From IMG/VR virus record IMGVR_UViG_2706794662_000007: a DNA stretch of 64,000 nucleotides; one strand, 5' to 3'. The notes under the pieces were generated by a model. The model ran no database searches and was not told the DNA's origin. It saw nothing but the letters and a program-made list of their open reading frames with translations. Source of the stretch: a virus (lineage: Duplodnaviria > Heunggongvirae > Uroviricota > Caudoviricetes). Made by a program: the position numbers and the translations under genes. This document shows positions 18,905-64,000 of this stretch, one piece after another (the stretch's first letter is position 1; the number at the start of each line of letters is the position of its first letter).

Positions 18905-19423
18905 CTAAAAATCAAANNNNNNNNNNNNNNNNNNNNNNNNNNNNNNNNNNNNNNNNNNNNNNNNNNNNNNNNNNNNNNNNNNNNNNNNNNNNNNNNNNNN
19001 NNNNNNNNNNNNNNNNNNNNNNNNNNNNNNNNNNNNNNNNNNNNNNNNNNNNNNNNNNNNNNNNNNNNNNNNNNNNNNNNNNNNNNNNNNNNNNNNNNNN
19101 NNNNNNNNNNNNNNNNNNNNNNNNNNNNNNNNNNNNNNNNNNNNNNNNNNNNNNNNNNNNNNNNNNNNNTTTAAAGGAAGATAGGTTCCCCATAGTAGCT
19201 GTCTGCCGTGCGCTCGTGTGAAATACCGGGCCATCTTCGGATTGCTATGCTGCTTAGGAGCGCCTGGTCTGTATGTCTGATACCCGGCCAACATCCCATC
19301 AAACCTGTATAGAGGGAATGTAACAACTCCTTCGCTTTCATCGATCCACTGTCTATATGGATGCACATCATAGCGGTAGTTACGAGTTAGCAAATGAGCT
19401 TCCAGCTTTCCAAATTTAGTCAT
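18905..19423 (-). CDS. hypothetical protein (interrupted by N-run)
   Basis: Start set to MTKFGKLEAH with GAGGGA ribosome-binding site; C-terminal part and frame uncertain. Confidence 0.35.
   Translation of the reverse strand: MTKFGKLEAHLLTRNYRYDVHPYRQWIDESEGVVTFPLYRFDGMLAGYQTYRPGAPKQHSNPKMARYFTRAHGRQLLWGTYLPLXXXXXXXXXXXXXXXXXXXXXXXXXXXXXXXXXXXXXXXXXXXXXXXXXXXXXXXXXXXXXXXXXXXXXXXXXXXXXXXXXXXXXFDF
18917..19169. other. N-run
   Basis: 253 n. Confidence 1.
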
Positions 19424-21475: not shown

Positions 21476-21748
21476 TTAACCCGCAGTGCNNNNNNNNNNN
21501 NNNNNNNNNNNNNNNNNNNNNNNNNNNNNNNNNNNNNNNNNNNNNNNNNNNNNNNNNNNNNNNNNNNNNNNNNNNNNNNNNNNNNNNNNNNNNNNNNNNN
21601 NNNNNNNNNNNNNNNNNNNNNNNNNNNNNNNNNNNNNNNNNNNNNNNNNNNNNNNNNNNNNNNNNNNNNNNNNNNNNNNNNNNNNNNNNNNNNNNNNNNN
21701 NNNNNNNNNNNNNNNNNNNNNNNNNNNNNNNNNNNNNNNAGTTGCCAT
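21476..21748 (-). CDS. hypothetical protein (mostly masked by N-run)
   Basis: ATG at 21748 preceded by conserved junction GGAGAGTGATATG; body is n. Confidence 0.3.
   Translation of the reverse strand: MATXXXXXXXXXXXXXXXXXXXXXXXXXXXXXXXXXXXXXXXXXXXXXXXXXXXXXXXXXXXXXXXXXXXXXXXXXXXXXXXXXXXXTAG
21490..21739. other. N-run
   Basis: 250 n. Confidence 1.
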
Positions 21749-25187: not shown

Positions 25188-26892
25188 TCATTTAACGCGT
25201 TTGAAAACGTATACGCTGACTGTGATCCCTGTGTCTTCAAACTCGTTGGTAAACGACTTCCCTCTGGCATAAACGTAATTATCCATCGTCATCCAGTCCA
25301 GTATTGGCGCNNNNNNNNNNNNNNNNNNNNNNNNNNNNNNNNNNNNNNNNNNNNNNNNNNNNNNNNNNNNNNNNNNNNNNNNNNNNNNNNNNNNNNNNNN
25401 NNNNNNNNNNNNNNNNNNNNNNNNNNNNNNNNNNNNNNNNNNNNNNNNNNNNNNNNNNNNNNNNNNNNNNNNNNNNNNNNNNNNNNNNNNNNNNNNNNNN
25501 NNNNNNNNNNNNNNNNNNNNNNNNNNNNNNNNNNNNNNNNNNNNNNNNNNNNNNNNNNNNNNNNNCCAGATCGGCGTTAATATAGGCCAGAAGATCCCCA
25601 CGTCCGGCTTGAGGCTCCAACAGCTTCTCACCAGGCTTCAATTCAGTGGCTCTGGCAACGTACTCAGCAATCAAGCGTGGGGTAGGGTAGAACTGGTGTG
25701 ATTTTGTATCCGGTATTAAACCGGTAGCCACAATCGTATTTAGCGTATGGCCGATCTCATACGGGAACTGCCAGTGCTTTTTCTCCTGCACGCCGCCAAT
25801 GAAGCTCAGTGTGCGCTCAAGCTCTTCCACCTGCGACTTCTGGAGAGCTGAATCAGAGAAGTACCATACGCCTTTGTCTTTGCTCAATCGCCCGTCACGA
25901 AGCGCAGTGCGAACCGGCACGGAGATCGTCTTCTGGATTAACCCGAACTGCTTTGGTGCCCGTGTTTTTGGCGCAGTTCGGCATGGCGCGGGGATTGCAG
26001 CAGGCATACTGTAAGCCAGCACCTCATTCAACTTCCAGGCCACGTCAGGATGTATTTCAAAGTGAACGTTGCCGTTCTTGAACATCTTCACGCGCATCAG
26101 ATTTCCATCGACGTTCATCCAGTCACCGGTCTGGCAGTCGTTTGCCCGATACGCAGCTGATAGCACCTCAGCAGTGCGGTTGATGGTAATAAATTCTTTG
26201 TGCGCGAAGAAATGAAGCAAGACACGCAGATCGTCGATGTAGTCCTCTTTGCGATAGTTCACGCTAACGCTGTCACGCCAGAAATCAGAAATGCAGTCAG
26301 CGATTATCAGACGCTCGCTGAAACCGTTTGTCTTATTTGTCTTGTGCGCAGGACTCAGCGCCTTAAACAAGCCATACACGCGCTCAGAGAGATATTTGTG
26401 CCTGTCATTCAGCAAATTAAGCATCGTTGGTATGACCGTTTCTGCTTTGAACTCCGGTACACCAACGAACTCTTTAACCTTCATCTGATAGCCGGTTCTG
26501 TCAGTTTTGATGACTTCCTGCTTGCCCTCGATAAATAGCTCACGCCACTCGTCGCGACGGGAAGCTGGCATGATCAGCAGAACGTTAGTCATATCCGTAA
26601 CCTTCCTCCAGTACTCGGCCCAAATATTCTGTTTCACCCATTCCAGATCGACGTTATCCAGCCAGACTCGATTCAAACGTGAGCGATCTTCATCTGGTCG
26701 GTGGTTTAGTCGAAGCAGGCGATTAATCATGTTGTGGCGTTCATCGCCATAAACGAAGTCGTGTACCTGATACATGAAGGAGATCTCTTTCTCGCACTCG
26801 GCCACAATTTCGTGGATGACGTTCATTTCCTGTCGATAGTCGATAGCAGTGTTTGAGCTGGCATCGCCCATGATGGAAAGGGCTGTATTCAT
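25188..26892 (-). CDS. putative N6-adenine DNA methyltransferase with large N-terminal extension (C-terminal part masked)
   Basis: FYPTPRLIAEYV followed by EPQAGRGDLLAYI (motif X then motif I, gamma-class order) just before the N-run; the catalytic (D/N)PPY region would lie in the masked part. Confidence 0.45.
25311..25565. other. N-run
   Basis: 255 n. Confidence 1.
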
Positions 26893-38312: not shown

Positions 38313-39455
38313 TCACAGGTCTGCAAACTGGCTTAGAGAAGCCTTGTCCACGGTAGAATCGATCTGACCTACCAGATATGTGCTTTGCTCTGCCTCTTGT
38401 GGTGCAATTTGCAGTGTGTCGGTTAACAACCACTTGTTCATCCAGACCAGCGGATCGGTGGTAACCTCTGGAAATAAAGCCTTCAGGCCAAGACGATTCA
38501 TAGCCAGATTGGTGCGGTATTTTACATAGGTCTTCAAAATATCCGCGTTTAAACCAATCATCGAACCGTCTTTGAAGAGATACTCGGCCCAGTTCATTTC
38601 TTGTTCGGCGACTGATTTCATGGTGTCGTAAATGACGTTTTCTTCATCAGCAGCAATCTCTTTCCACAATAAACCTTCGCGACCGGTACGCATGAAGCGG
38701 ATCATGCGTTCAGTTCCTTCGCAATGCAGAGCTTCATCACGGGCAATAAAGCGCATAATTTTGGTGTTACCCTCAAGCAACTTCCGTTCGCCAAAGGCAA
38801 ACGTACATGCAAAACTTACATAGAAACGGATCGCCTCAAGCGCATTAATGGACACCAACGTGCGGAAAAGCTGACGGTGCAAAGGATATGGCTCCCAGCC
38901 ATATTCATTTACGTACAGACGCTCAAATTCCTTCTCGCCTAACGACTGGCGCTCGCAGGTCATCCCATAAAGCCTGTCATATTCAGCAGAGATACTGATC
39001 GCTCGGTTGATGATTTCTTCATCCGTAACAATACCGTCAAAAACAATGCTCGGATCGTCCACCATGCCACGAATAATGTGGGTGTAGCTGCGGCTATGGA
39101 TAGTCTCAGAGAAAGACCATGTTTCAACCCACGTTTCCAGTTCAGGAATAGAGATAAGCGGCAGCAGCGTTGCATTTGGGCTACGTCCCTGAACTGAATC
39201 GAGTAACGTTTGATAACGGAGATTGCTCAGAAAAATGTGACGTTCGTGGTCCCGCAGCTTCGTGTTGAAGTCGATACGATCGCTCGAAATATCAACTTCT
39301 TCCGGCCGCCAGAAGAAAGACAATTGACGTTCAATCAACTTTTCAAAATCACGGTATTTTTGCTGATCGTAACGTGCCACGTTGACAGATTGTCCGAGGA
39401 ACATAGGCTCTTTGGTTGCATCATTAGCACCCAAACGGAACGTTGAATATGACAT
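38313..39455 (-). CDS. nrdB: ribonucleotide reductase class Ia beta subunit
   Basis: Near-colinear with E. coli NrdB as I recall it ([38 protein letters not shown]-terminal YLVGQIDS...); start set to MSYSTFRLG. Confidence 0.95.
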
Positions 39456-39536
39456 GTGTTTTTCCTTTTGCTTTTTGATGTGTTTAAACAAGTTGTTATC
39501 CTATTTGTTTAAACAAGGCTTACAAATCAAAGAGAA

Positions 39537-39555
39537 GGTGGGGATACACCCCACC
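39537..39555 (-). terminator. terminator hairpin after nrdA
   Basis: ggtggggatacaccccacc followed by T-rich run on minus strand. Confidence 0.55.
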
Positions 39556-39560
39556 ATATG

Positions 39561-41876
39561 TCAGATTTTGCAGGCTCCGTCGCACTCATCTTCTGGCTCG
39601 ACGGCTACAGCTTGCGTCAGTGGATTCTGCGGTTCGTCGTCATCACGCTTTCCTGCCCCATCTCTGGTGTTGTGGTAGTAAAGCGTTTTAACTCCCATCT
39701 TGTAGGCGAGAAGCAAATCTGACAGTAGCGTCATCATTGGGACTTTATCGCCTTCAAAGCGAGAAGGGTCATAGTTGGTATTGGCCGAAATAGCCTGGTC
39801 AAAGAACTTCTGGATGATCGCCACCTTTGTCAGATAGCCGCGGTTGTCCGGCATATCCCACAGGTATTCATACTGTTCCTTCAGTTTTTCAATCTCAGGC
39901 ACGACCATCTTAACGATGCCGTCCTTAGAAGATTTCACCGACACCGGTCCACGAGGCGGTTCGATGCCGTTTGTGGAATTAGTGATCTGGCTGGAAGTCT
40001 CGCATGGCATTTGTGCCGTCAGTGTGGAGTTGCGAAGACCGTATTTTGCAATACGTTCACGCAGTTCTTCCCACGGCATCTTTAACTCAAAGTTGGTTTC
40101 GCCACTTTCGTCTAATGAAGAACGGTAATGGTCGATCGGCAACTGACCAATTGCGTACTTGGTCTGCTCAAACCAGTCACACTCACCTTTTGCTTCAGCA
40201 AGTTGGCAGCTGGCATCAAGAAGGTAATACTGGATAGCTTCGAACGTTTCATGCACCAGTTTATTACCAGCGGTATCAGAATAACGAATGCCATTCTTTG
40301 CCAGGTAATAAGCAAAGTTGGTTACACCGATCCCCAGGCTACGACGAGCTTTGGCAGGCACTTCGGCTGCCTCCATCGGATAGTCTTGATAATCCAGTAA
40401 CGAATCCAGTGCAGCAACGGCATAGAACGCCACCTCTTTAAGAGACTCCAGTGAACGGATGGCTCCGAGGTTAAAAGCGGATAAAGTGCATAGCGCGATC
40501 TCACCGTTCGGGTCGTCGGTAAATGCCAGTGGACGGGTAGGTAGGGTGATCTCCATACACAGGTTTGACTGGCGGACAGGTGCAAGAGCAGGAATGAAAG
40601 CGCCATGCTCATTAATATGATCGACGTTCGCAATATAAATTCGGCCCGTGGACGCTCGTTCCTGCATCAGAGATGAGAACAGCTCAATGGCAGGTACTGA
40701 CTTCTTGCGAATTGAATCATCGGCTTCGTATTTATGGTACAGCTTTTCAAACAGCTCCTGGTCTGTGAAGAAGGCTTCGTACATATCAGGCACATCATGC
40801 GGGCTGAACAGAGTGATGTTCTCGCTTCTGACGAGTCGACGGTACATTAGACGGTTACTCATGACGCCGTAATCAAGATGGCGAACGCGGTTTTCATCAA
40901 TACCACGGTTATTTTTCACCACCAGCAGACTTTCAACTTCAAGATGCCAGATCGGGTAAAACGCTGTTGCTGCGCCACCACGAACACCACCTTGCGAACA
41001 AGATTTAACAGCCGTCTGGAAATGCTTCAGGAATGGAATAACTCCGGTATGGGTGGCTTCACCATTGCGGATCTCGCTGCCCAGCGCACGGATACGGCCA
41101 AAACCAATACCAATTCCAGCACGACGTGAAACGTAGTCGATAATTGCGGCTGAAGCTGCACTAATCCCTTTCAGACTATCGCCAGACTCAATCAGCACAC
41201 AACTGGAGAACTGACGGGTTGGAGTACGGACGCCGGCCATGATTGGTGTGGGCAGAGACAGTTTGAACGTACTTGTAACGTCATAGAAACCTTTGACCAT
41301 CTCCATACGTGTTTTGCCAGCGCAGTCGTCTTCCCAATTCTGGAACAGACACATGCCTACCAGCATATAGATATGTTGCGGCCCCTCATGAATCTCACCA
41401 GTAACACGGTTTTGAACGAGGTATTTGCTTTGCAACTGCACCGTAGCTGCATAGCCAAAAAGATCGTCACGTTTCGGCTTAATGTAATTACCGAGTTCTT
41501 CGATCTCTTCAAACGAATAATGTGTCAGCAAATCCTTGTCATAAACGCCCTTGTTAACGTTCTTGACAATGTGTTGGTAGAAGTTCGGATAGTCGTAACG
41601 ACCGAAGGCATCTTTGCGGATTTTAAAAATGTTCAGGCGGGCAGCCACCTGTGAGTAATTTGGTGCTTCTGGTGAGATCAAATCAGCGGCAGATTTAACC
41701 AAAGCCTCATGCAACTGGCTGGTGGTCATCCCATCAAAAATGCTGGCCGCAGCTCCCATTGCTACAGCGGATGCGCTTACACCACGAATGCCTTCTACGC
41801 CATACATTACGACGCGGTTGTATTTTTCTTCGGATAACGGCTCTGTTTGGCCGTTACGTTTTACGATGCTTATCAT
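39561..41876 (-). CDS. nrdA: ribonucleotide reductase class Ia alpha subunit
   Basis: 771 aa; SLPTPIMAGVRTPTRQFSSCVLIE, NLCMEI, C-terminal ...TLYYHNTRDGA...DECDGACKI with CxxC tail. Confidence 0.95.
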   Translation of the reverse strand: MISIVKRNGQTEPLSEEKYNRVVMYGVEGIRGVSASAVAMGAAASIFDGMTTSQLHEALVKSAADLISPEAPNYSQVAARLNIFKIRKDAFGRYDYPNFYQHIVKNVNKGVYDKDLLTHYSFEEIEELGNYIKPKRDDLFGYAATVQLQSKYLVQNRVTGEIHEGPQHIYMLVGMCLFQNWEDDCAGKTRMEMVKGFYDVTSTFKLSLPTPIMAGVRTPTRQFSSCVLIESGDSLKGISAASAAIIDYVSRRAGIGIGFGRIRALGSEIRNGEATHTGVIPFLKHFQTAVKSCSQGGVRGGAATAFYPIWHLEVESLLVVKNNRGIDENRVRHLDYGVMSNRLMYRRLVRSENITLFSPHDVPDMYEAFFTDQELFEKLYHKYEADDSIRKKSVPAIELFSSLMQERASTGRIYIANVDHINEHGAFIPALAPVRQSNLCMEITLPTRPLAFTDDPNGEIALCTLSAFNLGAIRSLESLKEVAFYAVAALDSLLDYQDYPMEAAEVPAKARRSLGIGVTNFAYYLAKNGIRYSDTAGNKLVHETFEAIQYYLLDASCQLAEAKGECDWFEQTKYAIGQLPIDHYRSSLDESGETNFELKMPWEELRERIAKYGLRNSTLTAQMPCETSSQITNSTNGIEPPRGPVSVKSSKDGIVKMVVPEIEKLKEQYEYLWDMPDNRGYLTKVAIIQKFFDQAISANTNYDPSRFEGDKVPMMTLLSDLLLAYKMGVKTLYYHNTRDGAGKRDDDEPQNPLTQAVAVEPEDECDGACKI

Positions 41877-43272: not shown

Positions 43273-45195
43273 AGCTGCGCCCCTCTTTAACTTCCAGCGT
43301 AATAGTTTCCCGGAACCATGACTTCATCTCTTTATGGGAGATAATCAGCACAGTACCTCGCTCGCGAGCTTTGGACTCCAGAATACCCATGAGGCGTTCA
43401 AGACCGGCTGTATCGAGTGCATCGTCAATTTCGTCGCCGATAAACAAATCGATGTTTTTACTCGCCCGGTTACTAACCAGATCCTGCAATGCCAAAGAAC
43501 ACGCAATGCGAACCTTCCGCTTCTCACCACCAGAGAGGGTCTGGAACGACTTACTTGAACCTTTCTTCTGCACACTAATGTTGAATTTGTCGCGATACTC
43601 ACCTTTTTTGGTGACATCCATCGTCGACCACTCAGCAGTAATATTCCCGTCAGACAACGTATTGAGATACTCGGCAGTGCGTGTATTCAGGAAAGGCGTA
43701 ACAGACGTCAAAATATGAGAACGCACCCCGGCAGGAGAGTAGACCTGACGAGCTTTTTCCAATAGCAACGTTTGTTCCTGAATAGCCTTCAACTCATCTT
43801 TTAAGGACTTGAAGGTAGACTTACTGGATACCAGGTTATCTTCGTGTCTGGCGATAAGAGCAATAAACGGATTAATCTCTTTTGATATACGATCGACCTC
43901 AGTACGAGCACGAGTCACAAGAGACTCAATAGCAACAATCTCCTTCTCACGATGACGCAAAGATGAGAGTTGTTTCGTAAGCTCTTCAATCCGGGCAATG
44001 ATAGCCGTTACATCAGGTGTCGTTTTAACAAGGGCAGACTCAATGCTTAACGCTTTCTCAAGATTCGTTTTGTGTTTAGCCATTGCCTCTGCAAGTGTCT
44101 TCGCCTGACCAATTTCCTGACGTGCTTGTTCAATGAAATTCTCCTTCACCGTTGATAGATCTTCTTCGCAGTAGGCTTTGCCACAAGTAGGGCATGGTGA
44201 TCCCACTTTAGTACCAACCTCTTCTGCTTTGGTCTTAAAATTACGCGCGCGGTTCATTGCATCAGCCTGACTATTTTCTGTAGCTTTGATGCTTGCCCGA
44301 ATATCAGTTATCGCACCACGAACNNNNNNNNNNNNNNNNNNNNNNNNNNNNNNNNNNNNNNNNNNNNNNNNNNNNNNNNNNNNNNNNNNNNNNNNNNNNN
44401 NNNNNNNNNNNNNNNNNNNNNNNNNNNNNNNNNNNNNNNNNNNNNNNNNNNNNNNNNNNNNNNNNNNNNNNNNNNNNNNNNNNNNNNNNNNNNNNNNNNN
44501 NNNNNNNNNNNNNNNNNNNNNNNNNNNNNNNNNNNNNNNNNNNNNNNNNNNNNNNNNNNNNNNNNNNNNNNNNNNNNNNNNNNNNNGATTGTCGACTCCA
44601 ATTTGGTTTTAACCACATCCATACGTGCGGCAGCTGCATTAGCTCGCTCACGAGCAATAGCGTAGGCGCGTGTCAGTCTGTCAACGCCAGCGGCTTCTTC
44701 TACGATGGTTTTGAGGTTTTTGTCGGACATTCCAGGTAAATCTGGCATAGCTTCTTGGCTCGCATAGATGGAAGCCATGAAAACCTCTTTAGATGCACCG
44801 ATCAGACGCTCGACGAACTCTTGCGTCAGCGCATCTTTGCCTTTCGTCATATCGCCGTCTTCACCACGAACGATAAGCCGATTTTTGAACTCTTTGTGTT
44901 TACGGTGACGAATGATCGCATATCTCTTGCCTTCATCCTCGATGGTTACTGCAACACGACAGTTCTTTTCATGGTCGGTAGACAACACATCGTCACCCTT
45001 CACACCATGAGCTGTTTCGCCATAAAGACACCACATCAGGCTATTCATTAGCGTTGACTTTCCAGAGCCATTACTTGATGCGGAACTATCATCACTATTA
45101 ACACCCTGAATGAGCACTAAACCACGCTGATCTAACTCGACCTCCGCGCTGGCGATAGCCATAAAATTCTCAACCTGGAGCTTTAAAAACTTCAT
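43262..45195 (-). CDS. SbcC/Rad50-like ATPase (gp46-like), interrupted by N-run 44324-44586
   Basis: N-terminal Walker A GSNGSGKST; C-terminal signature LSGGEKRK and Walker B LFIGDEID; coiled-coil middle. Confidence 0.8.
44324..44586. other. N-run
   Basis: 263 n. Confidence 1.
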
Positions 45196-54230: not shown

Positions 54231-55321
54231 TTACTCTTCTACTGACTCGGTGGGGTTGTCTTTTGCTCTTCGGTCGTCGATTGCCTGCAAAGCCGCAATG
54301 ATTTCAGCCAGTGGCTTCTCCCGATACATCTCGACGATCTGCGATTTGGTGTATTTCTTGTCACCAATTTCAACTCGCCCGCTGGCGTTCTTTGGCAGGT
54401 ATCCTTCTTCCAGCATGTACTCGACGAGCGATTCGATAACGTCGAGGCCACGAGTAGGATCGAAGTAGAATTTCCAGGTGCATTTGCCATACGGTGGTGC
54501 AACTTTGTTTTTGATGCATTCTGCGCCTACGTCCTGGCCGATCTTCTCTTTACCATCCTTCATCACCGATGCACCAAGACGGATACGTACAGAAGCGTAG
54601 AACTTCGGTGAATCTCCACCTGGAGACGTAGTAGGGTCGCCAAACATTACACCGATTTTTGTGCGAACCTGATTCAAGAAGATGATGCAGGCGTTGTATT
54701 TGCGTGCCCACAAAGCCAGAGTAGGGAAGTTCGCACTTGTCGCACGAGCCAGTGCCGTATTGTCGTTCATGTTTAGCTGATCTTTGTCTTTGGCAGTGCC
54801 TTCAGCCATCTTTTCGAACTTCTCGGCTTTGGAGTTCGGAACCATAGACGCAAGTGAGTCAGCCACGATACAGATAGGTGCTGATTCAGGAATAAGCTCT
54901 TCATCACGTACCAATTTAAGAATTGTGCCGATCAACTCTACAGAGTCTTCGAAGGTATCAGGCTGCTTGTATACCCACTGACCGTCATCCTCATCTGCAT
55001 TCAAACCATTGGCTACAGCCAGGCCAACGTCAAAACTGTTCTCATGATCGAGGANNNNNNNNNNNNNNNNNNNNNNNNNNNNNNNNNNNNNNNNNNNNNN
55101 NNNNNNNNNNNNNNNNNNNNNNNNNNNNNNNNNNNNNNNNNNNNNNNNNNNNNNNNNNNNNNNNNNNNNNNNNNNNNNNNNNNNNNNNNNNNNNNNNNNN
55201 NNNNNNNNNNNNNNNNNNNNNNNNNNNNNNNNNNNNNNNNNNNNNNNNNNNNNNNNNNNNNNNNNNNNNNNNNNNNNNNNNNNNNNNNNNNNNNNNNNNN
55301 NNNNNNNNNNNNTTTTGCCAT
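54231..55321 (-). CDS. RecA-family recombinase (UvsX/RecA-like), interrupted by N-run 55055-55312
   Basis: C-terminal part ...IIFLNQVRTKIGVMFGDPTTSPGGDSPKFYASVRIRLG matches the RecA core (loop L2 region); N-terminal ATG at 55321; Walker motifs presumably masked. Confidence 0.8.
55055..55312. other. N-run
   Basis: 258 n. Confidence 1.
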
Positions 55322-55323
55322 GA

Positions 55324-55596
55324 TCAGGCTCCTTTTGTTTCGTTGATTCGTTTTAAAGCGGCGGATTCGTCGAATACAATCGCATCGTGGTTAAGGAGTC
55401 TGGATACACGAGCGAGGATTTTTACGACCTGCTCGCTGACTAATCCAAACTCGCGATCTGTCGCTTTCATTCCGGCAGCGCCTAGAATTGACGGCAGTGC
55501 GATGACAGCGTACTCACCGTGATAAAAGACAATCTCTTTTGCCAGTTGGGTAGGGGTGGTTGTAGCGCCATTAATAATCGATTTAAGCATTAGCAA
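55324..55596 (-). CDS. hypothetical protein
   Basis: 90 aa ORF. Confidence 0.4.
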   Translation of the reverse strand: MLMLKSIINGATTTPTQLAKEIVFYHGEYAVIALPSILGAAGMKATDREFGLVSEQVVKILARVSRLLNHDAIVFDESAALKRINETKGA

Positions 55597-56534
55597 TACC
55601 TTTCGAATGGAAGAACAAACACTTCAAGGTCTTCAAGGAACGAACGGAAATTCAGCTCGTAGCACAGTTGCTCGAATGCTTTCACGTCACGATTGCCTTT
55701 GATTGTTTCGATTTCGGTAGGCGGAAACTTCGTCTCAATCAGGTTCATTAGCGTGATGTTTCTCTTGAACGCTTCGAGCATTCGACAGCCTGTTTTCTCG
55801 TTGAAGGCATTCTTCGCTAGTTTGTTGAAGGCGGTCTTATGGCGTCCTTTGTCAACCACGATTGAGCCGTCGTTGATGCCGCGTACCATCGTTGCGACAC
55901 TTCCCCATTCATGCAGCAGCTCTTTCGCACCGCCAGCACCAATGCCACCAACACCGCTAATGTTGTCCGATTTATCGCCTTGTAATGCTTTTGCTTCCAA
56001 AAATGCGCGAGGAGTAGCGAATCCTGTCAGCTCCGCAAATTGCTCAAAATTAACCTGCTTGTTTTTGGCGTCTTCGCGCAGGCTTACCCAGCTTACGTTT
56101 TCGCGAACTAACTGAAGCCAGTCGCTATCGCCTGTTAACAGATAGATGTGTTCAACAATTGGCTGCGGTGCAATGCTGGCTACCAGCAGCCCGGCCAGAT
56201 CATCCGCTTCTGCATCTTTTGCAATGAGTTGGGTAACTCCAAGCGCGGTCATCATTTTGAGGATGTATGGCTTCTGGATAGCAAAGCCTTCCTTCATCTT
56301 TTTCATATCAGGATCGTCGTCGCGATTTGCTTTGTAGTCCGGGTAAAAGTCGCGACGCTTGTCACTAAATCCATCCCAAAGAATCATAGGTCGGGCATGG
56401 AGGATGGAGGCATAACGACGGACGTTCTTAACAAAGCCGAAAGCAGCCTGTACTTCCATTTCGCCGTTGTGCAATTTGTCAGATTGTTGGTGGTAATAAC
56501 CCAGGCTATTGCCATCTACGAAGAGATAATTCAC
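55590..56534 (-). CDS. 5'-3' exonuclease / flap endonuclease (FEN family)
   Basis: NYLFVDGNSLGYY, EADDLAG, LLTGDSDWLQL, GDKSDNISGVGGIG; start set to GTG after GGAAGGA ribosome-binding site, because the longer track ORF runs through the ssb terminator hairpin. Confidence 0.8.
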   Translation of the reverse strand: MNYLFVDGNSLGYYHQQSDKLHNGEMEVQAAFGFVKNVRRYASILHARPMILWDGFSDKRRDFYPDYKANRDDDPDMKKMKEGFAIQKPYILKMMTALGVTQLIAKDAEADDLAGLLVASIAPQPIVEHIYLLTGDSDWLQLVRENVSWVSLREDAKNKQVNFEQFAELTGFATPRAFLEAKALQGDKSDNISGVGGIGAGGAKELLHEWGSVATMVRGINDGSIVVDKGRHKTAFNKLAKNAFNEKTGCRMLEAFKRNITLMNLIETKFPPTEIETIKGNRDVKAFEQLCYELNFRSFLEDLEVFVLPFERYC

Positions 56535-56552
56535 CGGTACATTCCTTCCAAA

Positions 56553-56578
56553 AAGTAAGGCGTCCGTAGACGCCTTAC
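56553..56578 (-). terminator. terminator hairpin after ssb
   Basis: aaggcgtctacggacgcctt followed by T-run on minus strand. Confidence 0.5.
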
Positions 56579-56594
56579 TGGTCACGTAATGGGA

Positions 56595-57623
56595 TTACAG
56601 AGAGTCCAGCTCTCTCAGTAGGTCATCCAGACCTTCATCTTCCGTCGCAGATGCGGCTGCTACAGATGTCGCTGCGACTGCTTCAGACTCTTTGACTGAT
56701 ACGGCAACGGCAGCGGAACTTGCCTCTGGTTTAAATTCAGTTTCAACGGCACGGAGGATTTCTTCATCAACCAGACTGGTTGGTTCAGAAGCCGGTGTGT
56801 GCGCGGTTGCTACAGCCGTCGCTCCTTCTGTATGACCAGTGACAGAGCCAAATCCAGGTAGTGCCGCAGCCGATGTTTTCGCGGTTGAGGAAATTGCTGG
56901 TGCAGATGCTGCGGCAGTTGGTGCAGCGATGCCAATCAGACGACCCATAGTGCGAACTGTCGACAGAAGACGAGTTTCATCAGCCTGATTTGCGTATGCG
57001 ATCAGATCATGCTGGGTGTTCCAGAATTTATCTTCGATATCGCCTTTGTAGACTTTACGCTTAGGCGAGACGTCATATTTGGTATCGCGACCAGAGCCAG
57101 TACGTTTAATCAGGAATGCGTAGCCTTCCTCTTTGCTCAGTGGATTGCCGATATCATCAGCGATGTCTTCGGTGATTGCTTTGCAGATATCATCGAATAC
57201 AGTAGACGGCAGCTCGATTAATTGGCATTTCTCAGCATCTGCGAAATCCTCACGAGCAGAAAGAATGCCGTTGACCAGGTAGCGAGGAGTGGCACGCATT
57301 TGACCGATGCGTTCTTCCATTGCTTTGTTACCCTTGTGACGAGCGCGACCTTCCATCACCATTTCGCATAGCTGACAAGCGCGACCGTGAGTATGTTGCT
57401 CACAAATATAAGCGTTGGTTGCTTCTTTACCTTCCTCGTTCTGATACTTAACGTAGTGCATACCGAAAGTCTGGAAGAACTTACCGTTTGGGTCGTCTTT
57501 ATTCGGGAAGATGCGGATATAGTTGACGCCGTCTTTTAAGCGAGTCAGATCAACGTTGTTGCCACGTTTGGCGGCAATGTCTTCACGAGTTTTGTTAAGC
57601 AAATCAAGTAATGTCTTAGACAT
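56595..57623 (-). CDS. single-stranded DNA-binding protein (gp32-like)
   Basis: Zn-ligand-like C/H cluster YICEQHTHGRACQLCE, A/S/T-rich linker, acidic tail DEGLDDLLRELDSL. Confidence 0.6.
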   Translation of the reverse strand: MSKTLLDLLNKTREDIAAKRGNNVDLTRLKDGVNYIRIFPNKDDPNGKFFQTFGMHYVKYQNEEGKEATNAYICEQHTHGRACQLCEMVMEGRARHKGNKAMEERIGQMRATPRYLVNGILSAREDFADAEKCQLIELPSTVFDDICKAITEDIADDIGNPLSKEEGYAFLIKRTGSGRDTKYDVSPKRKVYKGDIEDKFWNTQHDLIAYANQADETRLLSTVRTMGRLIGIAAPTAAASAPAISSTAKTSAAALPGFGSVTGHTEGATAVATAHTPASEPTSLVDEEILRAVETEFKPEASSAAVAVSVKESEAVAATSVAAASATEDEGLDDLLRELDSL

Positions 57624-57740
57624 GTGTTTCTCCTTGTTGTGATTTGGCCGATGGCGCTATGCGCGTTGGGCTTTCGTTCATTCGTGGCTCTTTCGAGCTG
57701 TTAAATGATAGATCAGTACTTACTTATTATCTATCAAAAA

Positions 57741-58172
57741 TCAACGGGGAGTAATAAAGCGTTCAGAGCCTAATCGCTCTAATTCAACGATGGCCATCTT
57801 TGACGCCTGAACGATCATGTCTCGGCGATGCGAAAAGGCGGCGACAGCATGTTTGTATATGTCTGCTATGTGCCGTGCGTCATCCAACTTCTGACGTTTA
57901 GATAGATACTGTGGGTTCGTTTTAACCTTAGCGTCCAGTACAGACTCGTTGAACTTAATGCCGTTCATACTCAAGTTCTTACGCTCTGTGTCGTATAGCT
58001 TTGCTTCAACAGCTTCAAGGTTAAGTTTTGCCTCTGCGACACTTCTTTCTGCATGAGCGAGTTTTGAGCCATACTCCATTAAAAGGCGGGGTTGTCTACG
58101 CCAGACTTCCTCCAGATTGTCTCGGTCAAACTCGAGATCAGACATTATTTTCTCGTAAATATCGGTGATCAT
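57741..58172 (-). CDS. hypothetical protein (helical; possible recombination mediator)
   Basis: 143 aa ORF between ssb and dnaE; function not recognised. Confidence 0.45.
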   Translation of the reverse strand: MITDIYEKIMSDLEFDRDNLEEVWRRQPRLLMEYGSKLAHAERSVAEAKLNLEAVEAKLYDTERKNLSMNGIKFNESVLDAKVKTNPQYLSKRQKLDDARHIADIYKHAVAAFSHRRDMIVQASKMAIVELERLGSERFITPR

Positions 58173-58267
58173 GTGCTTTCCTTTTTACTTATCATCTTAT
58201 ATTGATTATATCATTGTGATGATAAGGCAAGGAGTTCGAGGATAGGGGATATGAGGGGATAAGAGAA

Positions 58268-58290
58268 AACATGGCCATAGAGGCCATGTT
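58268..58290 (-). terminator. terminator hairpin after dnaE
   Basis: aacatggcctctatggccatgtt followed by T-rich run. Confidence 0.55.
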
Positions 58291-58297
58291 TATTGGA

Positions 58298-61200
58298 TCA
58301 CGACTTAATAGTTTCTGCTACGTCGGCTAATATCGCTTCTAGTCGTTCTCCCTCTTCAGGTCTGAAGTAAAGAATGTTGGGGTTAAACCCGTAAAAGACT
58401 GTAACGTCAAGGTCTGGAAGATACTCCTTCCTACCGACTAAATCGGATGGCTTGTTTTTGTTGTTAAACAATGCCGTTGCCCGACTGCCACACGTCAGCA
58501 CATAGGTCGGACGTACCAGATTGATCTCTTCACGCATAAAGTCGGTGAACTGGCCGATCTCGTCTTTGGTGTAGTCCTTTTCTTTGTCTTTCACCTTTTT
58601 GCAAACGCCTGTGACATAGAGATCGCCCATGCGCAAATCTCCAGCCGTCAACAGCTTGGCCTTAAAATCGTCGTATCCGTTCTCCATGAAGTAACCGGTT
58701 CGAGCATCATTGCCGTTTGCATTGTCCAGAATGATCATGATTTTCGGCTTAATACCAATGCTGGGGCGGATTAGTTCATCACCTAAGCCCATTTCAGCCG
58801 CCATCCGCGTCATAAGTACGTTAATTTCAGCCGAACGTTTGGAGTTCATCTCAAACGGACGTGAGGCTTTAACTGCGTCTATGACAAGATTTCCCATCAA
58901 TTCCGCTTGGTCGCGGAGACGTTCTGGATCAGTTGCTGGCAGACTGCCTGGCTCGATGGATGCAAACGCCCCTACTTTTTGCAGTGATTCGCGCACTCGA
59001 CTATTACAGGCACGTTTCTCGACAGCTTCTTCGAATTGCGCCAGTGACTCGAATTTGCCGCCAACTTTTTCTCGCGCTCTCATGATGGCCTGGCAGCCAT
59101 TCTCAGAACAACCTTTCACAGCAGAGAAGGGCGCATACAGCACCTGGCTGCCATCTTCAAGCGTGCGGATCTCAATTCGGTTAGATGACACGTTAACGTC
59201 TGGTGGCAATACGCGAATACCATAGGTCAGCGCATCTTTAACCAGCCCCTGGTGTTTATCTTCGCCAAGAATAGTGAGAGCAGCAGCGAAAAACTCTGCG
59301 GGATAATGAGTTTTCAACCACATAGATTGATAACTGATTAAGGAGTAAGCAACAGAGTGTGATTTGTTGAACTGGTAGGCACCATTCTTTTCGAATGCGG
59401 TCCAGATCTCCTTCGCTTTCATCTCTGATAGCCCTGGATGTGACGCTGTAACGCGTACTGCGTTTATAGGTAGTTTTGCGCCGTACTCAAGTGCCTCTTC
59501 GACAGTTTTCATAGTTCCGTCTTCGCATTTAAAATGTTCCGCACGGTGAATGCGCTGTGTAGTGCCATCTTCCAGCTCAACGTCTATCCAGCCAGCTTGA
59601 GCCTGAACGATGAACTTCTCGCCCATGCTCTTCATTTTTTCCATGTCTTTTTTGCCTATCGCTTTACGAACGCCGTCAGCTTCAGCCATTGTGAAGCCAG
59701 CAAGCAATCGAGTCGCGTTCATCGTCTGTTCCTGATAGAGAATCACGCCATTTGTTTCTGCGGTAAGTTCATCAAGAACGGGGTGTAATGATTCCGGCGT
59801 CATAAAGCCTTTGGCGACAGAAACATAATCATCCAACATGCCTGACTGAATTGGTCCCGGCCGGAAGAGCGCAGTCGTGGCGACAACGGTTTTAAAGCTC
59901 ATTGGCTCAATGCCACCGCCCAGATCTTTAAGCAGCTTGCGCATTGGGCCTGATTCAAGCTGGAAAACACCTTGAGTGTACCCAGCAGCAAAACCATCCA
60001 GCACCTTGCGATCTTCAAGAGAAATGGTATCAAGATTGATATCTTCACCTGTGTTCTCTTTAATGTAGCGTTTTGCACTATCGAGCAAATCGAGAGTTGC
60101 CAGGCCAAGCACGTCCAGCTTAATTAGGCCCATAGCCTCGCAGTAACGCTTGTCAAATGCGATACAACGCGCGTCACCACGGCGCTCAACCGGTGTACGT
60201 TCTGTCAGAGGAACACCTGCTACGATCATCCCTGCCGCATGTCTACCAAAGCCACGCATAAGGCTTTGTAACTTGCAGGCTGCATTGAATGCATCAGGAT
60301 ATTTTGTTGCGTATTTGTCGAGACTTGCCAGTTGTTCGCGCAGCTCTTCCAATGGAAGGCTATCATCCTCGACGTTCTTCAGTTCTTTTGATACCGCCAT
60401 ATCTGCGGACTCCACACCATAAATACGAGCGGTATCACGTAGTGCAGAGGCTGCGCCCAGGTAGGTGAAGTTCGGAATGCCTGCAACGTAATCTTCGCCG
60501 TAGCGTTCATTCAGATACTCGATCACTTCATGGCGACGTGCCTGGCTGAAGTCCAAATCCGCATCCGGCAAGTCGAGACGCTCAGGGTTGATGAAACGTT
60601 CAAACAGAAGACCGTGACGGATTGGGTCGACGTTGGTTATGCCTATGCACCATGCCACCAGAGATCCAGCGGAGGAACCACGACCAGGCCCGACAGGAAT
60701 GCCAGTTTCACGACTATGATTCATCAGATCGCGCACCATCAGGAAGTAACCACAGAATCCCAGGCGAGTCAGCGTGTCCATTTCGTACTTTAGCCGCTCA
60801 ACATAAACCCTGTTCTCAGAAGCAGGTGGTGTGTATCCAAACTCTTTTGTGGTAAGACGTTTACGCAGCCCTGCAACAGCCAGTTTCATCAGCGTTGCAG
60901 GTTCGTCGTCTGCCATCTTGGGCAGTGCTGGTGGCAATTCATGCCAGCGCCATGTGCAGGCATCGATAATGGTATCCTGCGTTGTTGAGGCCATTGCAGC
61001 TGTTACCGGCACATCCATGCGAACGGAGAAGGCTTTAAGCGCCTCAAGGAGATGGCGGCGACCATTGACGGCGTTATCTCGCTGGTGGGGGATACGCAGA
61101 CGATGCGGCTGGTCGATTTTTATGTTGTTCGTAACCATGTGCGCAATGTCTTTAATGTCTGCATCGTCGATCGATTCGTAATAAGCGGGATAGAACGCCA

Positions 61201-61816
61201 CTGGCTCTATTTTCAATGCGCTGGCGACTTTCATCGCCCGGACGTTAATCTGGTCGTAGAATGGGGTAGGGTGCGGATAAACCACACTATAGAAGTTGTC
61301 TTTTCCACCCGGTGTAATCAGTGTGCTTATGATTTTTGCAAAATCGTTGCGTTGGAACACGCTACCGATGTCGGAAGTGAGCAGGATGATGTTGCCTTTG
61401 GCATATGTAGAAACCAACTGTTCGAGCGAGAGACGCGGTACAAAGTAGAACTGTTCTCGTGTGTTGGCCACCGTCATTAGTTCGCAGATGTCGCGATATC
61501 CTTGCTCATTTTTAATTAGAGCGGTAAACGAGTAGTTACGTCCTCGCTCTAATGATTCCATACATCCCTTAGATTCTTTAGCAAGTTTATCCCGGTGCTC
61601 GTATGTGGGATCATCAACGATGTTTAGTTTCACACCACAAATAACCGCCATGTCGTCACCAGCGGCACGTTGTAGTGGAATAACACTCGCAATATTCATG
61701 CTATCTGCTGAAATTACAGCGGTGTAGCCAGCTTCTCTGGCAATCTTCACCGCGTTTTCTGCTTTTAGAGCCGACTCCCCAAGTGAGAAGTCAGTTCGAA
61801 CCATCAGTGCCTTCAT
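58298..61816 (-). CDS. dnaE: DNA polymerase III alpha-type replicative polymerase (PHP domain N-terminus)
   Basis: 1172 aa; N-terminal PHP-like region, GFCGYFLMVRDLMNHSRETGIPVGPGRGSSAGSLVAWCIGITNVDP palm/fingers signature. Confidence 0.9.
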   Translation of the reverse strand: MKALMVRTDFSLGESALKAENAVKIAREAGYTAVISADSMNIASVIPLQRAAGDDMAVICGVKLNIVDDPTYEHRDKLAKESKGCMESLERGRNYSFTALIKNEQGYRDICELMTVANTREQFYFVPRLSLEQLVSTYAKGNIILLTSDIGSVFQRNDFAKIISTLITPGGKDNFYSVVYPHPTPFYDQINVRAMKVASALKIEPVAFYPAYYESIDDADIKDIAHMVTNNIKIDQPHRLRIPHQRDNAVNGRRHLLEALKAFSVRMDVPVTAAMASTTQDTIIDACTWRWHELPPALPKMADDEPATLMKLAVAGLRKRLTTKEFGYTPPASENRVYVERLKYEMDTLTRLGFCGYFLMVRDLMNHSRETGIPVGPGRGSSAGSLVAWCIGITNVDPIRHGLLFERFINPERLDLPDADLDFSQARRHEVIEYLNERYGEDYVAGIPNFTYLGAASALRDTARIYGVESADMAVSKELKNVEDDSLPLEELREQLASLDKYATKYPDAFNAACKLQSLMRGFGRHAAGMIVAGVPLTERTPVERRGDARCIAFDKRYCEAMGLIKLDVLGLATLDLLDSAKRYIKENTGEDINLDTISLEDRKVLDGFAAGYTQGVFQLESGPMRKLLKDLGGGIEPMSFKTVVATTALFRPGPIQSGMLDDYVSVAKGFMTPESLHPVLDELTAETNGVILYQEQTMNATRLLAGFTMAEADGVRKAIGKKDMEKMKSMGEKFIVQAQAGWIDVELEDGTTQRIHRAEHFKCEDGTMKTVEEALEYGAKLPINAVRVTASHPGLSEMKAKEIWTAFEKNGAYQFNKSHSVAYSLISYQSMWLKTHYPAEFFAAALTILGEDKHQGLVKDALTYGIRVLPPDVNVSSNRIEIRTLEDGSQVLYAPFSAVKGCSENGCQAIMRAREKVGGKFESLAQFEEAVEKRACNSRVRESLQKVGAFASIEPGSLPATDPERLRDQAELMGNLVIDAVKASRPFEMNSKRSAEINVLMTRMAAEMGLGDELIRPSIGIKPKIMIILDNANGNDARTGYFMENGYDDFKAKLLTAGDLRMGDLYVTGVCKKVKDKEKDYTKDEIGQFTDFMREEINLVRPTYVLTCGSRATALFNNKNKPSDLVGRKEYLPDLDVTVFYGFNPNILYFRPEEGERLEAILADVAETIKS

Positions 61817-61996
61817 GTGTTTTTACCTTTCTGGTTTTTTTGATTTTGTCATTTGGGAAGCCTACGAACTTCCCATGCATCGAAATCGCAACTTCTTTTG
61901 CTGATTGGTGACAATAAGGCTTGTCTGGACACTCCAGACAAGCCTTACCAGTTTCAGAAGCAGCGATAAGAGAGCCGAAACATCCTTTACGCACGA

Positions 61997-63232
61997 TCAA
62001 CCAAATATTTTTTGAACAACTTCACGAGCCGCTTGTGCAGAAGCTGAAGGGAGTTTGTTAATGAAAGAACGCTCAATACCTGTCACAAAATCGCCTCGCA
62101 TCATTCCAATCTTGGCCGACAACAAAAGCTCACGAGGCCCAATCGGTTGGCTGATATTGTGTTCTTCGTATCCATCGCGAACGATACCGGCAAACTTAAC
62201 CATCTTTTCAGCGTATTCATCCACGATGCCTGCATTTGTCAACATGTTGATCTCTGCGTCTTTGCTCATGTATTTCACATTCGAAACGATGCCAAAACGC
62301 GAAAAGTTCGCGGCGTTCTGGATGTTTGTACCCTGGTACAAGCCGGTTTCATCACCAGATCCGTTCGTGTTGCCAGTGCCAATGAAAGCAAACCGTTCAT
62401 GCGGAGTAATGCGACGCCATTCTGGAGTTGCCTCTTTGATGACCAACGCTTCACCTTCCAGCACTGGCTGATACACGCCAAGAATTTGTGGAAACGCAAA
62501 GTCGTATTCATCCGCGAGGTAAACCCAGCCATGCTTCATTGCGAGCGCAAGCAAGCCAGGTTCGAAATACGTAGAGCCATCACGCGCCAGAATTTGCCCC
62601 GTAACATGTGCCTCTTCCATTGATGCTGTATGTTGGGCACGGATCAACGGACGATTGAGCAAAGCACATAGCTGTGTAGGCAATGACGATTTGCCTGTTC
62701 CTGCATGACCCCACAAATAGCCAGGTATGCCAAGTTCAAGCATCATGAAAATATCTTTGATCAGTTCGAAGTCGCCATATACGTAGCCTTTCTTCACTTC
62801 GGGAACGAACTCTGGATACGGCGTATTGACGTTGACGCTAACCATGAGCGGCGTCCCACGTTTTGTTCCGAGTTCTTCCACCGTTACGTTTAGCAGTTCG
62901 TGAGCTGCGACCAGATCTGTCTTGTACTCAACTGTGCCTGTGTAGCCAGGGCTACTGGTCAAGCCAGAAGATTTGGCCATTTCGCTTTTTTGCTCGGCAC
63001 GTTTAGCTTGAATTGCATCAAGTGCCTTTTTCGATAGCGTTGGCTCATCTGGAAACTGTGTTGTGTACATTTTCAGTACGGTGTCAGGATCGGCATCTTT
63101 TACTGACTCAGGAATGCCCTCGCAATTACCATTGGCTACATGGGACTTAAAATAGTGAAATGATTTTCCGCACCACTTGCAAACAAGGTAATCAGAAGGA
63201 TTTTTTTCATTTTGCAGTGCAGTAGTAGTCAT
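61997..63232 (-). CDS. MoxR/CobS-like AAA+ ATPase
   Basis: Walker A GHAGTGKSS, Walker B VYLADEYD; N-terminal C4-like cluster CKWCGK...C. Confidence 0.65.
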   Translation of the reverse strand: MTTTALQNEKNPSDYLVCKWCGKSFHYFKSHVANGNCEGIPESVKDADPDTVLKMYTTQFPDEPTLSKKALDAIQAKRAEQKSEMAKSSGLTSSPGYTGTVEYKTDLVAAHELLNVTVEELGTKRGTPLMVSVNVNTPYPEFVPEVKKGYVYGDFELIKDIFMMLELGIPGYLWGHAGTGKSSLPTQLCALLNRPLIRAQHTASMEEAHVTGQILARDGSTYFEPGLLALAMKHGWVYLADEYDFAFPQILGVYQPVLEGEALVIKEATPEWRRITPHERFAFIGTGNTNGSGDETGLYQGTNIQNAANFSRFGIVSNVKYMSKDAEINMLTNAGIVDEYAEKMVKFAGIVRDGYEEHNISQPIGPRELLLSAKIGMMRGDFVTGIERSFINKLPSASAQAAREVVQKIFG

Positions 63233-63327
63233 GCGTTTTTCCTTTGTTTTCTAATGAGCTTTCAACTTCTTATATAAATATACCATCAAATATCGTAAGT
63301 GATTACTTATCATTAAGGCTATTCTAA

Positions 63328-64000
63328 TCACTTCAAAATGATACGAGATAGTTCAGTAACTACAGATGAACCAAGACTATCAACGCTCGTTACCAGGGCA
63401 TGATTTGAGTAAAATCTCTCCGGTGCGTCAGTCATGATGCCAATTGCCATCAAATCAATGTCAGTCTGCGTTTCAATTTGCTTCGCAACCGAACGCAAAT
63501 GAGCGTCAAAACCTCTCCCAACAGCCCACGGCGCGCCATCACTCAGAACAAGCATGATCTTCCTGTCCTCCATGCGACCGGAAAATAACGATGCAAGGCT
63601 GGCTATGCTTTCACCATCCACGTTATTAAGAAGTGGGAATGTGTAGCCTACGCACCCCATACGTGAGCGAACTTCGCGAGAACTTACCTTTTCATTCCAA
63701 TTTTTGATGATAGGTAGCATTAAAGATTCAAAGCGAGAGAACTCATACTTGACAGCCTTAAGTTCTCCTGCCGCCATATGACTACCAAATGTAGTGAAGC
63801 CGGTGATAATGTTGGGAACATTTATTCGATCAAGGGCATCGGCGATGGTATATGAACTTGCAAGAGCCAATTGTATCGTTATACCACTCATTGAACCTGA
63901 TAAATCAATCACTTGTTGAACACAGGCGTTAACGGCTTTAGATTCTTCTTTTTTACGAAACACGCGATCATCATTCATTGCTAATCTGTAGATACTAGAA
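63328..64000 (-). CDS. vWA (MIDAS) domain protein, CobT-like; N-terminus beyond window
   Basis: MIDAS motif DLSGSM; no in-frame stop between listed ATG (63978) and window end, so likely longer. Confidence 0.6.
   Translation of the reverse strand, partial: SSIYRLAMNDDRVFRKKEESKAVNACVQQVIDLSGSMSGITIQLALASSYTIADALDRINVPNIITGFTTFGSHMAAGELKAVKYEFSRFESLMLPIIKNWNEKVSSREVRSRMGCVGYTFPLLNNVDGESIASLASLFSGRMEDRKIMLVLSDGAPWAVGRGFDAHLRSVAKQIETQTDIDLMAIGIMTDAPERFYSNHALVTSVDSLGSSVVTELSRIILK

Follow-up and report, generated by a model that had tools for sequence, protein, structure and literature searches.

A CobT-like adaptor and a CobS-like ATPase encoded upstream of dnaE on an SSU5-type phage-plasmid: a likely remodelling machine rather than a cobalt chelatase

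Identification of the gene pair

The DNA analysed here, referred to as the window, is the 64,000-nucleotide stretch of IMG/VR virus record IMGVR_UViG_2706794662_000007, which derives from a phage-plasmid of the SSU5/pHCM2 type. Its right end carries, on the minus strand, the genes for an adaptor protein with a CobT-like von Willebrand factor A (vWA) domain and for a CobS-like ATPase of the MoxR (AAA_5) type. The pair is proposed to be a MoxR/vWA-type remodelling machine that belongs to the core early-lytic functions of the phage, does not act as a chelatase and is possibly proteolytic. We estimate the probability of this account as a whole at about 0.55, and the proteolytic step is given less than half of that. 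The pair is almost certainly not a cobalt chelatase. As judged from sequence, it is a phage-type CobS/CobT pair of the viral cobST cluster (PHROG 249 and PHROG 1576), and the matches of both the ATPase and the vWA protein lie far beyond chance by E-value.

The pair itself was already known, since annotated entries identical to the genes exist and PMC8651126 describes the viral cobST cluster. What is added here is the failed membership of both proteins in the chelatase families, the contrast with canonical CobT at an HExxH motif, a CCHH extension of the ATPase, a small four-cysteine open reading frame (ORF) and the dnaE operon.

Four Shigella sonnei plasmids (107-109 kb) share the region at 100% identity. 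Identity is 97-99% with about 190 E. coli plasmids and with phage-plasmids such as Cyrano, and 75% with Salmonella phage SSU5. Against one plasmid, NZ_CP053753.1, the window aligns collinearly from end to end at 100% identity, except for seven masked N-runs and one IS2 copy. The gene pair was found in 455 PLSDB plasmids; of 5426 complete E. coli genomes, 219 (about 4%) have it, plasmid-borne every time. It is a core pair of the SSU5-like phage-plasmid lineage and also of many other phages. CobT-like genes occur on about 1000 plasmids of Klebsiella, Escherichia, Acinetobacter, Enterobacter and Yersinia. The names now given by PGAP are "AAA family ATPase" and "cobaltochelatase CobT-related protein."

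The ATPase and the adaptor

The sole Pfam match of the ATPase above threshold was AAA_5, at 57.4 bits against a cut-off of 22, and residues 11-410 matched PHROG 249 with an E-value of 6.8e-107. The closest PDB match was Brucella CobS (E 2.4e-26), followed by midasin (E 1e-11), CbbQ and NorQ. The catalytic residues (Table 1) align one to one with the Brucella CobS residues named in the report of the solved CobST complex (10.64898/2026.07.21.739949). As in other MoxR/vWA pairs, the AAA_5 motifs are intact and the adjacent gene on the same strand encodes a vWA protein with a complete MIDAS (metal ion-dependent adhesion site; DxSxS…T…D).

Two features set the ATPase apart from canonical CobS. An N-terminal extension of about 100 residues, lacking in canonical CobS, contains the motif C18-x2-C21-x4-H26-x4-H31. 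Its spacing is that of a zinc knuckle, but its ligands would be CCHH, and it may therefore bind zinc. The motif is kept in six of seven full-length phage-type ATPases (39-81% identity), whereas canonical CobS is without it. At the other terminus, all seven phage-type ATPases end no more than about 5 residues past the sequence Q(R/K)xF(G/S/E), whereas canonical CobS runs on for 10-16 residues. The C-terminal helix alpha10 of CobS (A322-V326), on which the CobT N-domain docks in the solved complex, is consequently not reached by the phage protein.

For the adaptor, the listed ORF at 63328-63978 encodes 216 amino acids. Seven in-frame codons lie 5' of the ATG at 63978 (SSIYRLA) with no stop up to base 64000, giving 223 codons within the window when the frame is read to its edge; because the frame stays open, the N-terminus is deduced to lie outside. 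The full gene was taken from the identical plasmid NZ_CP053753.1, where it spans 2109 bp and encodes 702 amino acids (L001 9629-11737). The 5' two thirds of the gene, beyond the window, encode a zincin-like N-domain with the motif HEVAH and an acidic disordered linker. In the full-length protein, both the Pfam CobT N-domain (residues 9-294) and the CobT_C vWA domain (residues 492-701) scored above the Pfam cut-offs, and residues 5-702 matched PHROG 1576 (E 1.9e-298). The vWA ORF of the window by itself matched CobT_C (PF11775) with 276.5 bits and an E-value of 2e-82 over profile positions 1-219 of 220.

The AlphaFold2 (AF2) model of the adaptor (pLDDT 85) consists of helix alpha1, a three-stranded sheet, a helical N-domain, a disordered linker and the vWA domain. 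The linker, residues 243-337, is acidic and serine-rich, and a conserved segment lies between it and the vWA domain. In 147 diverse relatives, residues K454, E457, R458, G471, G475 and L482 of this pre-vWA segment are near-invariant, the MIDAS residues D511, S513, S515 and D633 are invariant and T548/T549 are near-invariant. The MIDAS residues also align with the MIDAS of canonical CobT, while the best structural matches of the vWA domain were NorD (E 7e-9) and the MIDAS domain of midasin (E 7e-8).

These data bear out, but for one correction, a preliminary description, which had been made from the letters of the window and had reported, on a mobile element, the pairing of an AAA+ ATPase of CobS type with a vWA protein that is CobT-like, contains a MIDAS and has its N-terminus beyond the window. 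That description had suggested extending the window to obtain the full vWA gene, which the identical plasmid made possible, and had named a short, unrelated vWA frame as a finding that would speak against it; the full protein is instead 702 residues long, homologous to CobT and furnished with a conserved zincin-like N-domain. Its statement that the vWA gene follows the ATPase gene holds in plus-strand coordinates only, since transcription runs from the vWA gene to the ATPase gene.

Both genes are probably still functional, as suggested by purifying selection and by the intact AAA+ catalytic residues and MIDAS. The ratio of nonsynonymous to synonymous substitution rates (dN/dS) against SSU5 was 0.05 for the ATPase gene and 0.04 for dnaE, and because the two values are of the same order the ATPase gene was deemed not to be decaying. 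For the adaptor gene dS against SSU5 was saturated, and no dN/dS was derived.

Comparison with the cobaltochelatase

The closest PDB relative of the adaptor was CobT (E 2e-16). When a profile of the 147 relatives was compared by hhalign with four canonical CobT proteins whose genes adjoin cobS (in Sinorhizobium, Sphingomonas, Cereibacter or Pandoraea), the probability was 100% and the E-value 2.4e-45 over the full length, so that homology to CobT is not in doubt. The architecture is likewise that of CobT, as seen from the Pfam CobT and CobT_C matches, the hhalign comparison, the AF2 model and the MIDAS. The chelatase equivalog models, however, gave scores far under their cut-offs: 88.9 bits against 558.55 for the CobS equivalog (NCBIfam TIGR01650) and 65.2 bits against 759.05 for the CobT equivalog (TIGR01651, with the full 702 residues), that is, 6-12 times below. 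Neither cobN nor any other cob gene was found among the 123 annotated genes of the 109-kb plasmid NZ_CP053753.1, and the ribonucleotide reductase of the element is of class Ia, which does not depend on B12. According to the literature, E. coli has neither CobN nor the corrin substrate, and about 30 heterologous genes including cobN, cobS and cobT were needed for it to make B12 (PMC6249242); the lack of CobN in the host is taken from this source only, no protein-level search of E. coli chromosomes for it having been made. The earlier suggestion that the pair acts as a MoxR/vWA remodeller rather than a cobalt chelatase is thus supported by the failed equivalog cut-offs and by the lack of cob genes on NZ_CP053753.1.

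The closest solved relatives are CobS and CobT of Brucella melitensis (PDB 9uka series). In that complex a CobS hexamer is combined with an M48-like CobT N-domain, a linker some 90 residues long, a "shaft" that enters the pore and a MIDAS facing CobN (10.64898/2026.07.21.739949). The phage adaptor has the same layout, including linker, pre-vWA segment and vWA MIDAS, but the phage pair is without a CobN partner or a corrin pathway. Further differences are the HExxH…E of the adaptor where CobT has DSMALR and, in the ATPase, the CCHH extension and the absence of the C-terminal helix after QRxFG. The gene order also differs, being adaptor then ATPase in the phage and cobS then cobT in bacteria, and the phage pair, unlike bacterial cobST, is linked to dnaE.

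Zincin signature of the adaptor

The N-domain of the adaptor contains HEVAH at residues 74-78 followed by N103-x-x-E106-D107-x-x-x-E111. D73 and E111 are the same in all 147 relatives (about 26-61% identity), and H74, E75, H78, N103, E106 and D107 are near-invariant; HExxH is kept in 142 of 146 full-length cluster representatives. Three other adaptors, those of Vibrio phage ICP2, Rhizobium phage RHph_X66 and roseophage CRP-810, also have it, as does the "peptidase" of cyanophage P-SSM2. The four canonical CobT sequences are without it, D-S-M-A-L-R being aligned opposite D-H-E-V-A-H in the profile alignment. The elements of the AF2 N-domain (pLDDT 91) appear in zincin order, with a helix, a three-stranded sheet and the HExxH helix (residues 62-81). 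The zincin pattern is therefore present in the form of HExxH on a helix and a conserved acidic candidate for the third ligand downstream.

This fold recurs at the N-terminus of vWA proteins of 600-800 amino acids from very diverse bacterial and archaeal tailed viruses. A search of PDB sequences with the N-domain, by phmmer and with a four-sequence profile, gave no match to CobT_N or to a peptidase, and the homology to canonical CobT_N was recovered by profile-profile comparison only. The M48/M56 zinc metalloproteases (Ste24, HtpX and BlaR1) are among the closest known systems.

Gene neighbourhood and expression

The pair is followed by a small ORF (orf69) and by dnaE, and these four genes, cobT-cobS-orf69-dnaE, are proposed to form one transcription unit, which probably ends at a terminator-like hairpin directly after dnaE. 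In consensus scans of the minus strand, no terminator-like site was found from the adaptor gene to the dnaE stop and no promoter-like site between the adaptor gene and dnaE, the spacer between adaptor and ATPase having neither. A consensus scan of NZ_CP053753.1 likewise gave no minus-strand sigma-70 promoter upstream of the operon. From 58.3 kb to the right end of the window all genes are on the minus strand.

A divergent helix-turn-helix (HTH) regulator and a 70-amino-acid ORF (PHROG 2627) lie upstream of the adaptor gene, outside the window and by the integrase gene (L001 11836-12682). They look like an immunity switch that controls the cobT-cobS-dnaE unit; no sigma-70 consensus promoter was found for this region. 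Directly downstream of dnaE, a T4-style recombination module (54231-58172) suggests recombination-dependent replication in a phage that uses DnaE.

The arrangement is conserved beyond this lineage. In four metagenomic relatives (about 30% identity) and in Rhizobium phage RHph_X66 the order is small ORF, CobT, AAA_5, a four-cysteine or sigma-like ORF, and DnaE, and where the contigs of these relatives reach far enough, gp32 and FEN come after DnaE, with RecA in one case. Some of the relatives with about 30% identity have a divergent HTH regulator upstream of the unit. ICP2 has the pair ahead of primase, helicase and polymerase, and in P-SSM2 it lies between gp46 and gp45/gp44.

Expression was assessed from published RNA-seq of lysogens of Cyrano, whose region is 98% identical. 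The normalised reads were 7.8 and 6.7 for the pair and 10.1 for dnaE, compared to 7-8 for terminase, 96 for the HTH repressor and 141 for HicB (PMC9928086 S1 Table). In this relative, then, the pair is switched off while the element is a plasmid (lysogeny), its reads being at the level of structural and capsid genes. In the Cyrano macrophage samples the upstream 70-amino-acid ORF rose about 90-fold (log2 4.3 to 10.8), and cobT and cobS were nearly unchanged. Cyrano is inducible by ciprofloxacin.

Proposed mechanism and alternative explanations

By analogy with CobST, NorQD and CbbQO, the pair would work as follows. Six ATPase subunits would form a ring, on which the 702-residue adaptor would dock through its zincin-like N-domain, and the conserved pre-vWA segment would insert into the ring pore like the CobT shaft. 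The MIDAS face of the vWA domain would capture an acidic residue of a client, presumably a protein other than CobN, and ATP hydrolysis would move the adaptor and thereby remodel the client. The adaptor may also cleave the client, as it keeps the HExxH…E zinc-peptidase signature that was lost in the true chelatase subunit. Since the pair stands at the head of the DnaE operon and is off in lysogeny, it presumably acts at the start of lytic replication.

A bolder version of the proposal is offered tentatively, with the odds clearly against it. The pair would be an unrecognised kind of ATP-dependent protease, in which the MIDAS adaptor, not the AAA+ ring, carries the zinc peptidase and the ATPase bears a zinc-knuckle-like CCHH module, and which would process or remove a specific host or replisome protein as phage replication starts. 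CobT would then be a derived pseudo-peptidase descendant.

Several observations weigh against the remodelling account or parts of it. The helix at the C-terminus with which CobS binds CobT_N is missing from the phage ATPase, and the two phage proteins may therefore dock in another geometry than in the solved complex. In the latter the pore holds the shaft of the adaptor itself and no substrate, which is not the arrangement of a classical unfoldase-protease. With HExxH lost in 4 of 146 relatives, the machine may be able to do without catalysis. The pair of roseophage CRP-810 lies near the genome end, in the order cobS then cobT, and does not adjoin replication genes; linkage to replication is therefore frequent but not universal. 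The putative operon structure is based on consensus scans only, and the RNA-seq data come from the relative Cyrano and cover lysogeny only. In the literature that could be searched, no functional study of a phage CobS/CobT pair came to light.

Of the alternatives, the one usually adopted in virome papers is that of an auxiliary metabolic gene, in which phage CobS and CobT join the CobN of the host and raise cobalt insertion and the supply of cobalamin. The homology of the pair is in its favour, and a B12 role has been proposed for archaeal viruses, cyanophages, ICP2 and alterophages (PMC8651126, PMC3037004 and PMC11705849). We consider it highly improbable for this element, given the equivalog scores, the lack of any cob gene, the class Ia reductase, a zincin motif in the adaptor that is missing from true CobT, and hosts, E. 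coli and Shigella, that have neither CobN nor its HBAD (hydrogenobyrinic acid a,c-diamide) substrate (PMC6249242); strong purifying selection persists even in these enterobacterial hosts (dN/dS 0.05). A function in the plasmid state, that is, in maintenance, replication or partition, is very doubtful as well. The element is a plasmid in lysogeny, and the preliminary description had hinted at such a function by suggesting plasmid maintenance assays, but the pair is at background in Cyrano lysogens, at the level of capsid genes, when the repressor and toxin-antitoxin genes are well expressed. It also occurs in the strictly lytic ICP2 and T4-like cyanophages, and the element has RepB and ParB genes of its own, located elsewhere, away from the pair.

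The two remaining alternatives both keep the MoxR/vWA mechanism. The pair could be a metal-cofactor insertase in the manner of NorQ/NorD, CoxD/CoxE and CobST, which would fit a metal centre into a phage enzyme produced simultaneously, with the PHP domain of DnaE or the di-iron site of NrdB as candidate targets. Characterised MoxR/vWA pairs are often metal-insertion chaperones (10.64898/2026.07.21.739949), the vWA domain is structurally closest to NorD, dnaE of the same operon has a PHP domain, and the element carries nrdAB and an ApbC iron-sulfur carrier. This explanation was deemed unlikely because phages with the pair use unrelated polymerases (of the Pol I type in ICP2 and of the T4 type in cyanophages) and because nothing ties the conservation of HExxH to metal delivery. 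Alternatively, the pair could be a pure chaperone or remodeller without proteolysis, HExxH being retained only to bind a metal in a structural or regulatory role, or as part of the surface that docks the ATPase. The equivalent helix region of canonical CobT (R76 and D80) contacts the small subdomain of CobS (10.64898/2026.07.21.739949), the invariant D73 directly precedes HExxH, four of the 146 relatives manage without the motif, and known MoxR/vWA systems work without proteolysis (PMC7159879). The full pattern of an active zincin, with both histidines, the catalytic glutamate and the downstream acidic residues, is nevertheless retained by 97% of relatives (30-57% identity), and canonical CobT does without it; we therefore regard the non-proteolytic explanation as a minority possibility, though one to be taken seriously.

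Related systems and implications

The viral cobST cluster, to which the pair belongs, includes cyanophage CobS with its "peptidase," ORF41/42 of ICP2 and the pairs of haloarchaeal tailed viruses. Compared with the rest of the cluster, the branch of SSU5 and the Rhizobium phage adds the CCHH extension of the ATPase and the fixed place upstream of dnaE, and otherwise nothing essential differs. A homologue of the ATPase was found in 801 phage records. PHROG 249 is labelled "porphyrin biosynthesis," and the long-standing label of the cyanophage adaptor is "peptidase." The P-SSM2 protein of that name gave no Pfam match, and its assignment as CobT-like was made from alignment motifs and PMC8651126.

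Among cellular systems, NorQ/NorD, CbbQ/CbbO and RavA/ViaA likewise combine a hexameric AAA_5/MoxR-type motor with one MIDAS-vWA adaptor that bridges to the client. Adaptors of the NorD, CbbO and ViaA type differ in being without a zincin-like HExxH domain, and none of their clients (NorB, Rubisco and others) is present here. Midasin/Rea1 shares the AAA_5 and MIDAS similarity and the logic by which a client bound to the MIDAS is removed or remodelled with energy from ATP, but it is a eukaryotic single-chain giant that acts on pre-ribosomes and has no peptidase domain. A reading of the pair as a defence system was dropped, since PADLOC, run on the two proteins and on the two small ORFs that flank them, gave nothing for the ATPase and only a chance-level DrmE match (E 0.0026) in the low-complexity linker of the adaptor.

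Virome surveys, PMC8651126 and PMC11705849 among them, routinely count phage cobS/cobT as vitamin B12 auxiliary metabolic genes. That reading almost certainly does not hold for this element, whose genes for the pair nevertheless show conservation as tight as that of the replicative polymerase. Should the pair indeed be a remodeller or protease linked to replication, many conclusions on metabolism drawn from viromes would be wrong and a very widespread phage gene pair would gain a role. The intact zincin of the phage adaptor, set against its loss in canonical CobT, also bears on the evolution of the class I chelatase motor. This E. coli and Shigella phage-plasmid offers a convenient system, with a tractable host that is without CobN and the ciprofloxacin-inducible relative Cyrano.

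Feature coordinates and minor observations

Table 1. Coordinates of the gene pair, its motifs and other features of the window
Feature	Position	Strand	Remarks
CobT-like adaptor, 3' part	63328-64000	-	Codons 480-702 of 702; end of "shaft" segment and complete vWA/MIDAS domain
MIDAS motif DLSGS	63892-63906	-	D511, S513, S515
MIDAS motif GFTT	within 63790-63801	-	T548/T549
MIDAS motif LSDG	63535-63546	-	D633
Adaptor-ATPase spacer	63233-63327	-	95 bp; AGGA ribosome-binding site 9 nt before ATG
CobS-like (MoxR-type, AAA_5) ATPase	61997-63232	-	411 aa; phage-specific N-terminal extension (about 140 aa), AAA+ large and small subdomains
CCHH motif of ATPase N-terminal extension	63140-63181	-	C18, C21, H26, H31; zinc-knuckle spacing
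Walker A, GHAGTGKS	62687-62710	-	
Walker B, VYLADE	62507-62524	-	
Sensor-1	62366-62377	-	N288
Arg finger	62294-62305	-	R312
Sensor-2	62129-62140	-	R367
orf69	61791-62000	-	67-69 aa; four Cys (C7, C21, C24, C30); PHROG 6337, E 1e-44
dnaE, DNA polymerase III alpha-like	58298-61816	-	1172 aa; Pfam; next gene of same apparent transcription unit
Terminator-like hairpin	58267-58291	-	10-bp stem and T-rich tail; consensus scan only
UvsY-like gene	57741-58172	-	Named so in Cyrano
gp32-like single-stranded DNA-binding protein (SSB)	56595-57623	-	
5'-3' exonuclease/FEN	55590-56585	-	
RecA-like ORF	from 54231	-	
Class Ia nrdA/nrdB	~38313-41876	-	Mapped from NZ_CP053753.1 annotation
apbC/Mrp-type iron-sulfur cluster carrier gene	~17192-18292	+	Mapped from NZ_CP053753.1 annotation
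N-runs (~250-330 bases each)	9580-9843, 16400-16728, 18917-19169, 21490-21739, 25311-25565, 44324-44586, 55055-55312		

The small orf69 overlaps both the stop codon of the ATPase gene and the start of dnaE and is absent from the RefSeq annotation of NZ_CP053753.1. Its product is 88% identical in amino acids to SSU5_051 (dN/dS 0.17), and its cysteine motif also starts proteins of 165-171 residues in the same slot of distant relatives. As sigma-like genes fill the slot in some relatives, orf69 was considered as a truncated sigma-70-like gene, but it aligned with the cysteine-rich N-termini of the other occupants and not with the sigma proteins.

In the dnaE product, about 200 C-terminal residues after HHH_6 are without a Pfam match at E<=0.01. 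The same position in metagenomic relatives is held by a domain like uracil-DNA glycosylase (UDG), and the dnaE of one relative is split by an HNH endonuclease gene. The apbC/Mrp-type carrier and nrdA/nrdB matter only as a possible link to the metal-cofactor explanation.

Among Staphylococcus Herelleviridae, ORF 055 of phage 812 (682 aa) was examined as a CobT-like partner and rejected, as it does not align and has neither HExxH nor MIDAS. The gene next to the AAA_5 homologue in these phages (L005 5938-7679) belongs to DUF7192 and is not a vWA gene, from which it was concluded that the Herelleviridae hold only distant AAA_5 relatives and that the label "porphyrin biosynthesis" is even less justified there. 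A distant AAA_5 homologue is also present in Listeria Herelleviridae (L021 4758-6606).

In the Cyrano record OV696614.1 (8298-11737) the pair is annotated as "cobalamin synthetase" and "dimethylbenzimidazole phosphoribosyltransferase." This was deduced to be a collision of names, because those functions belong to the unrelated CobS and CobT of Salmonella.

The IS2 copy of NZ_CP053753.1 is located at 102117-103438 of that plasmid and is not contained in the window. The N-runs of the window are taken to be masked stretches rather than assembly gaps, since NZ_CP053753.1 has the corresponding bases.

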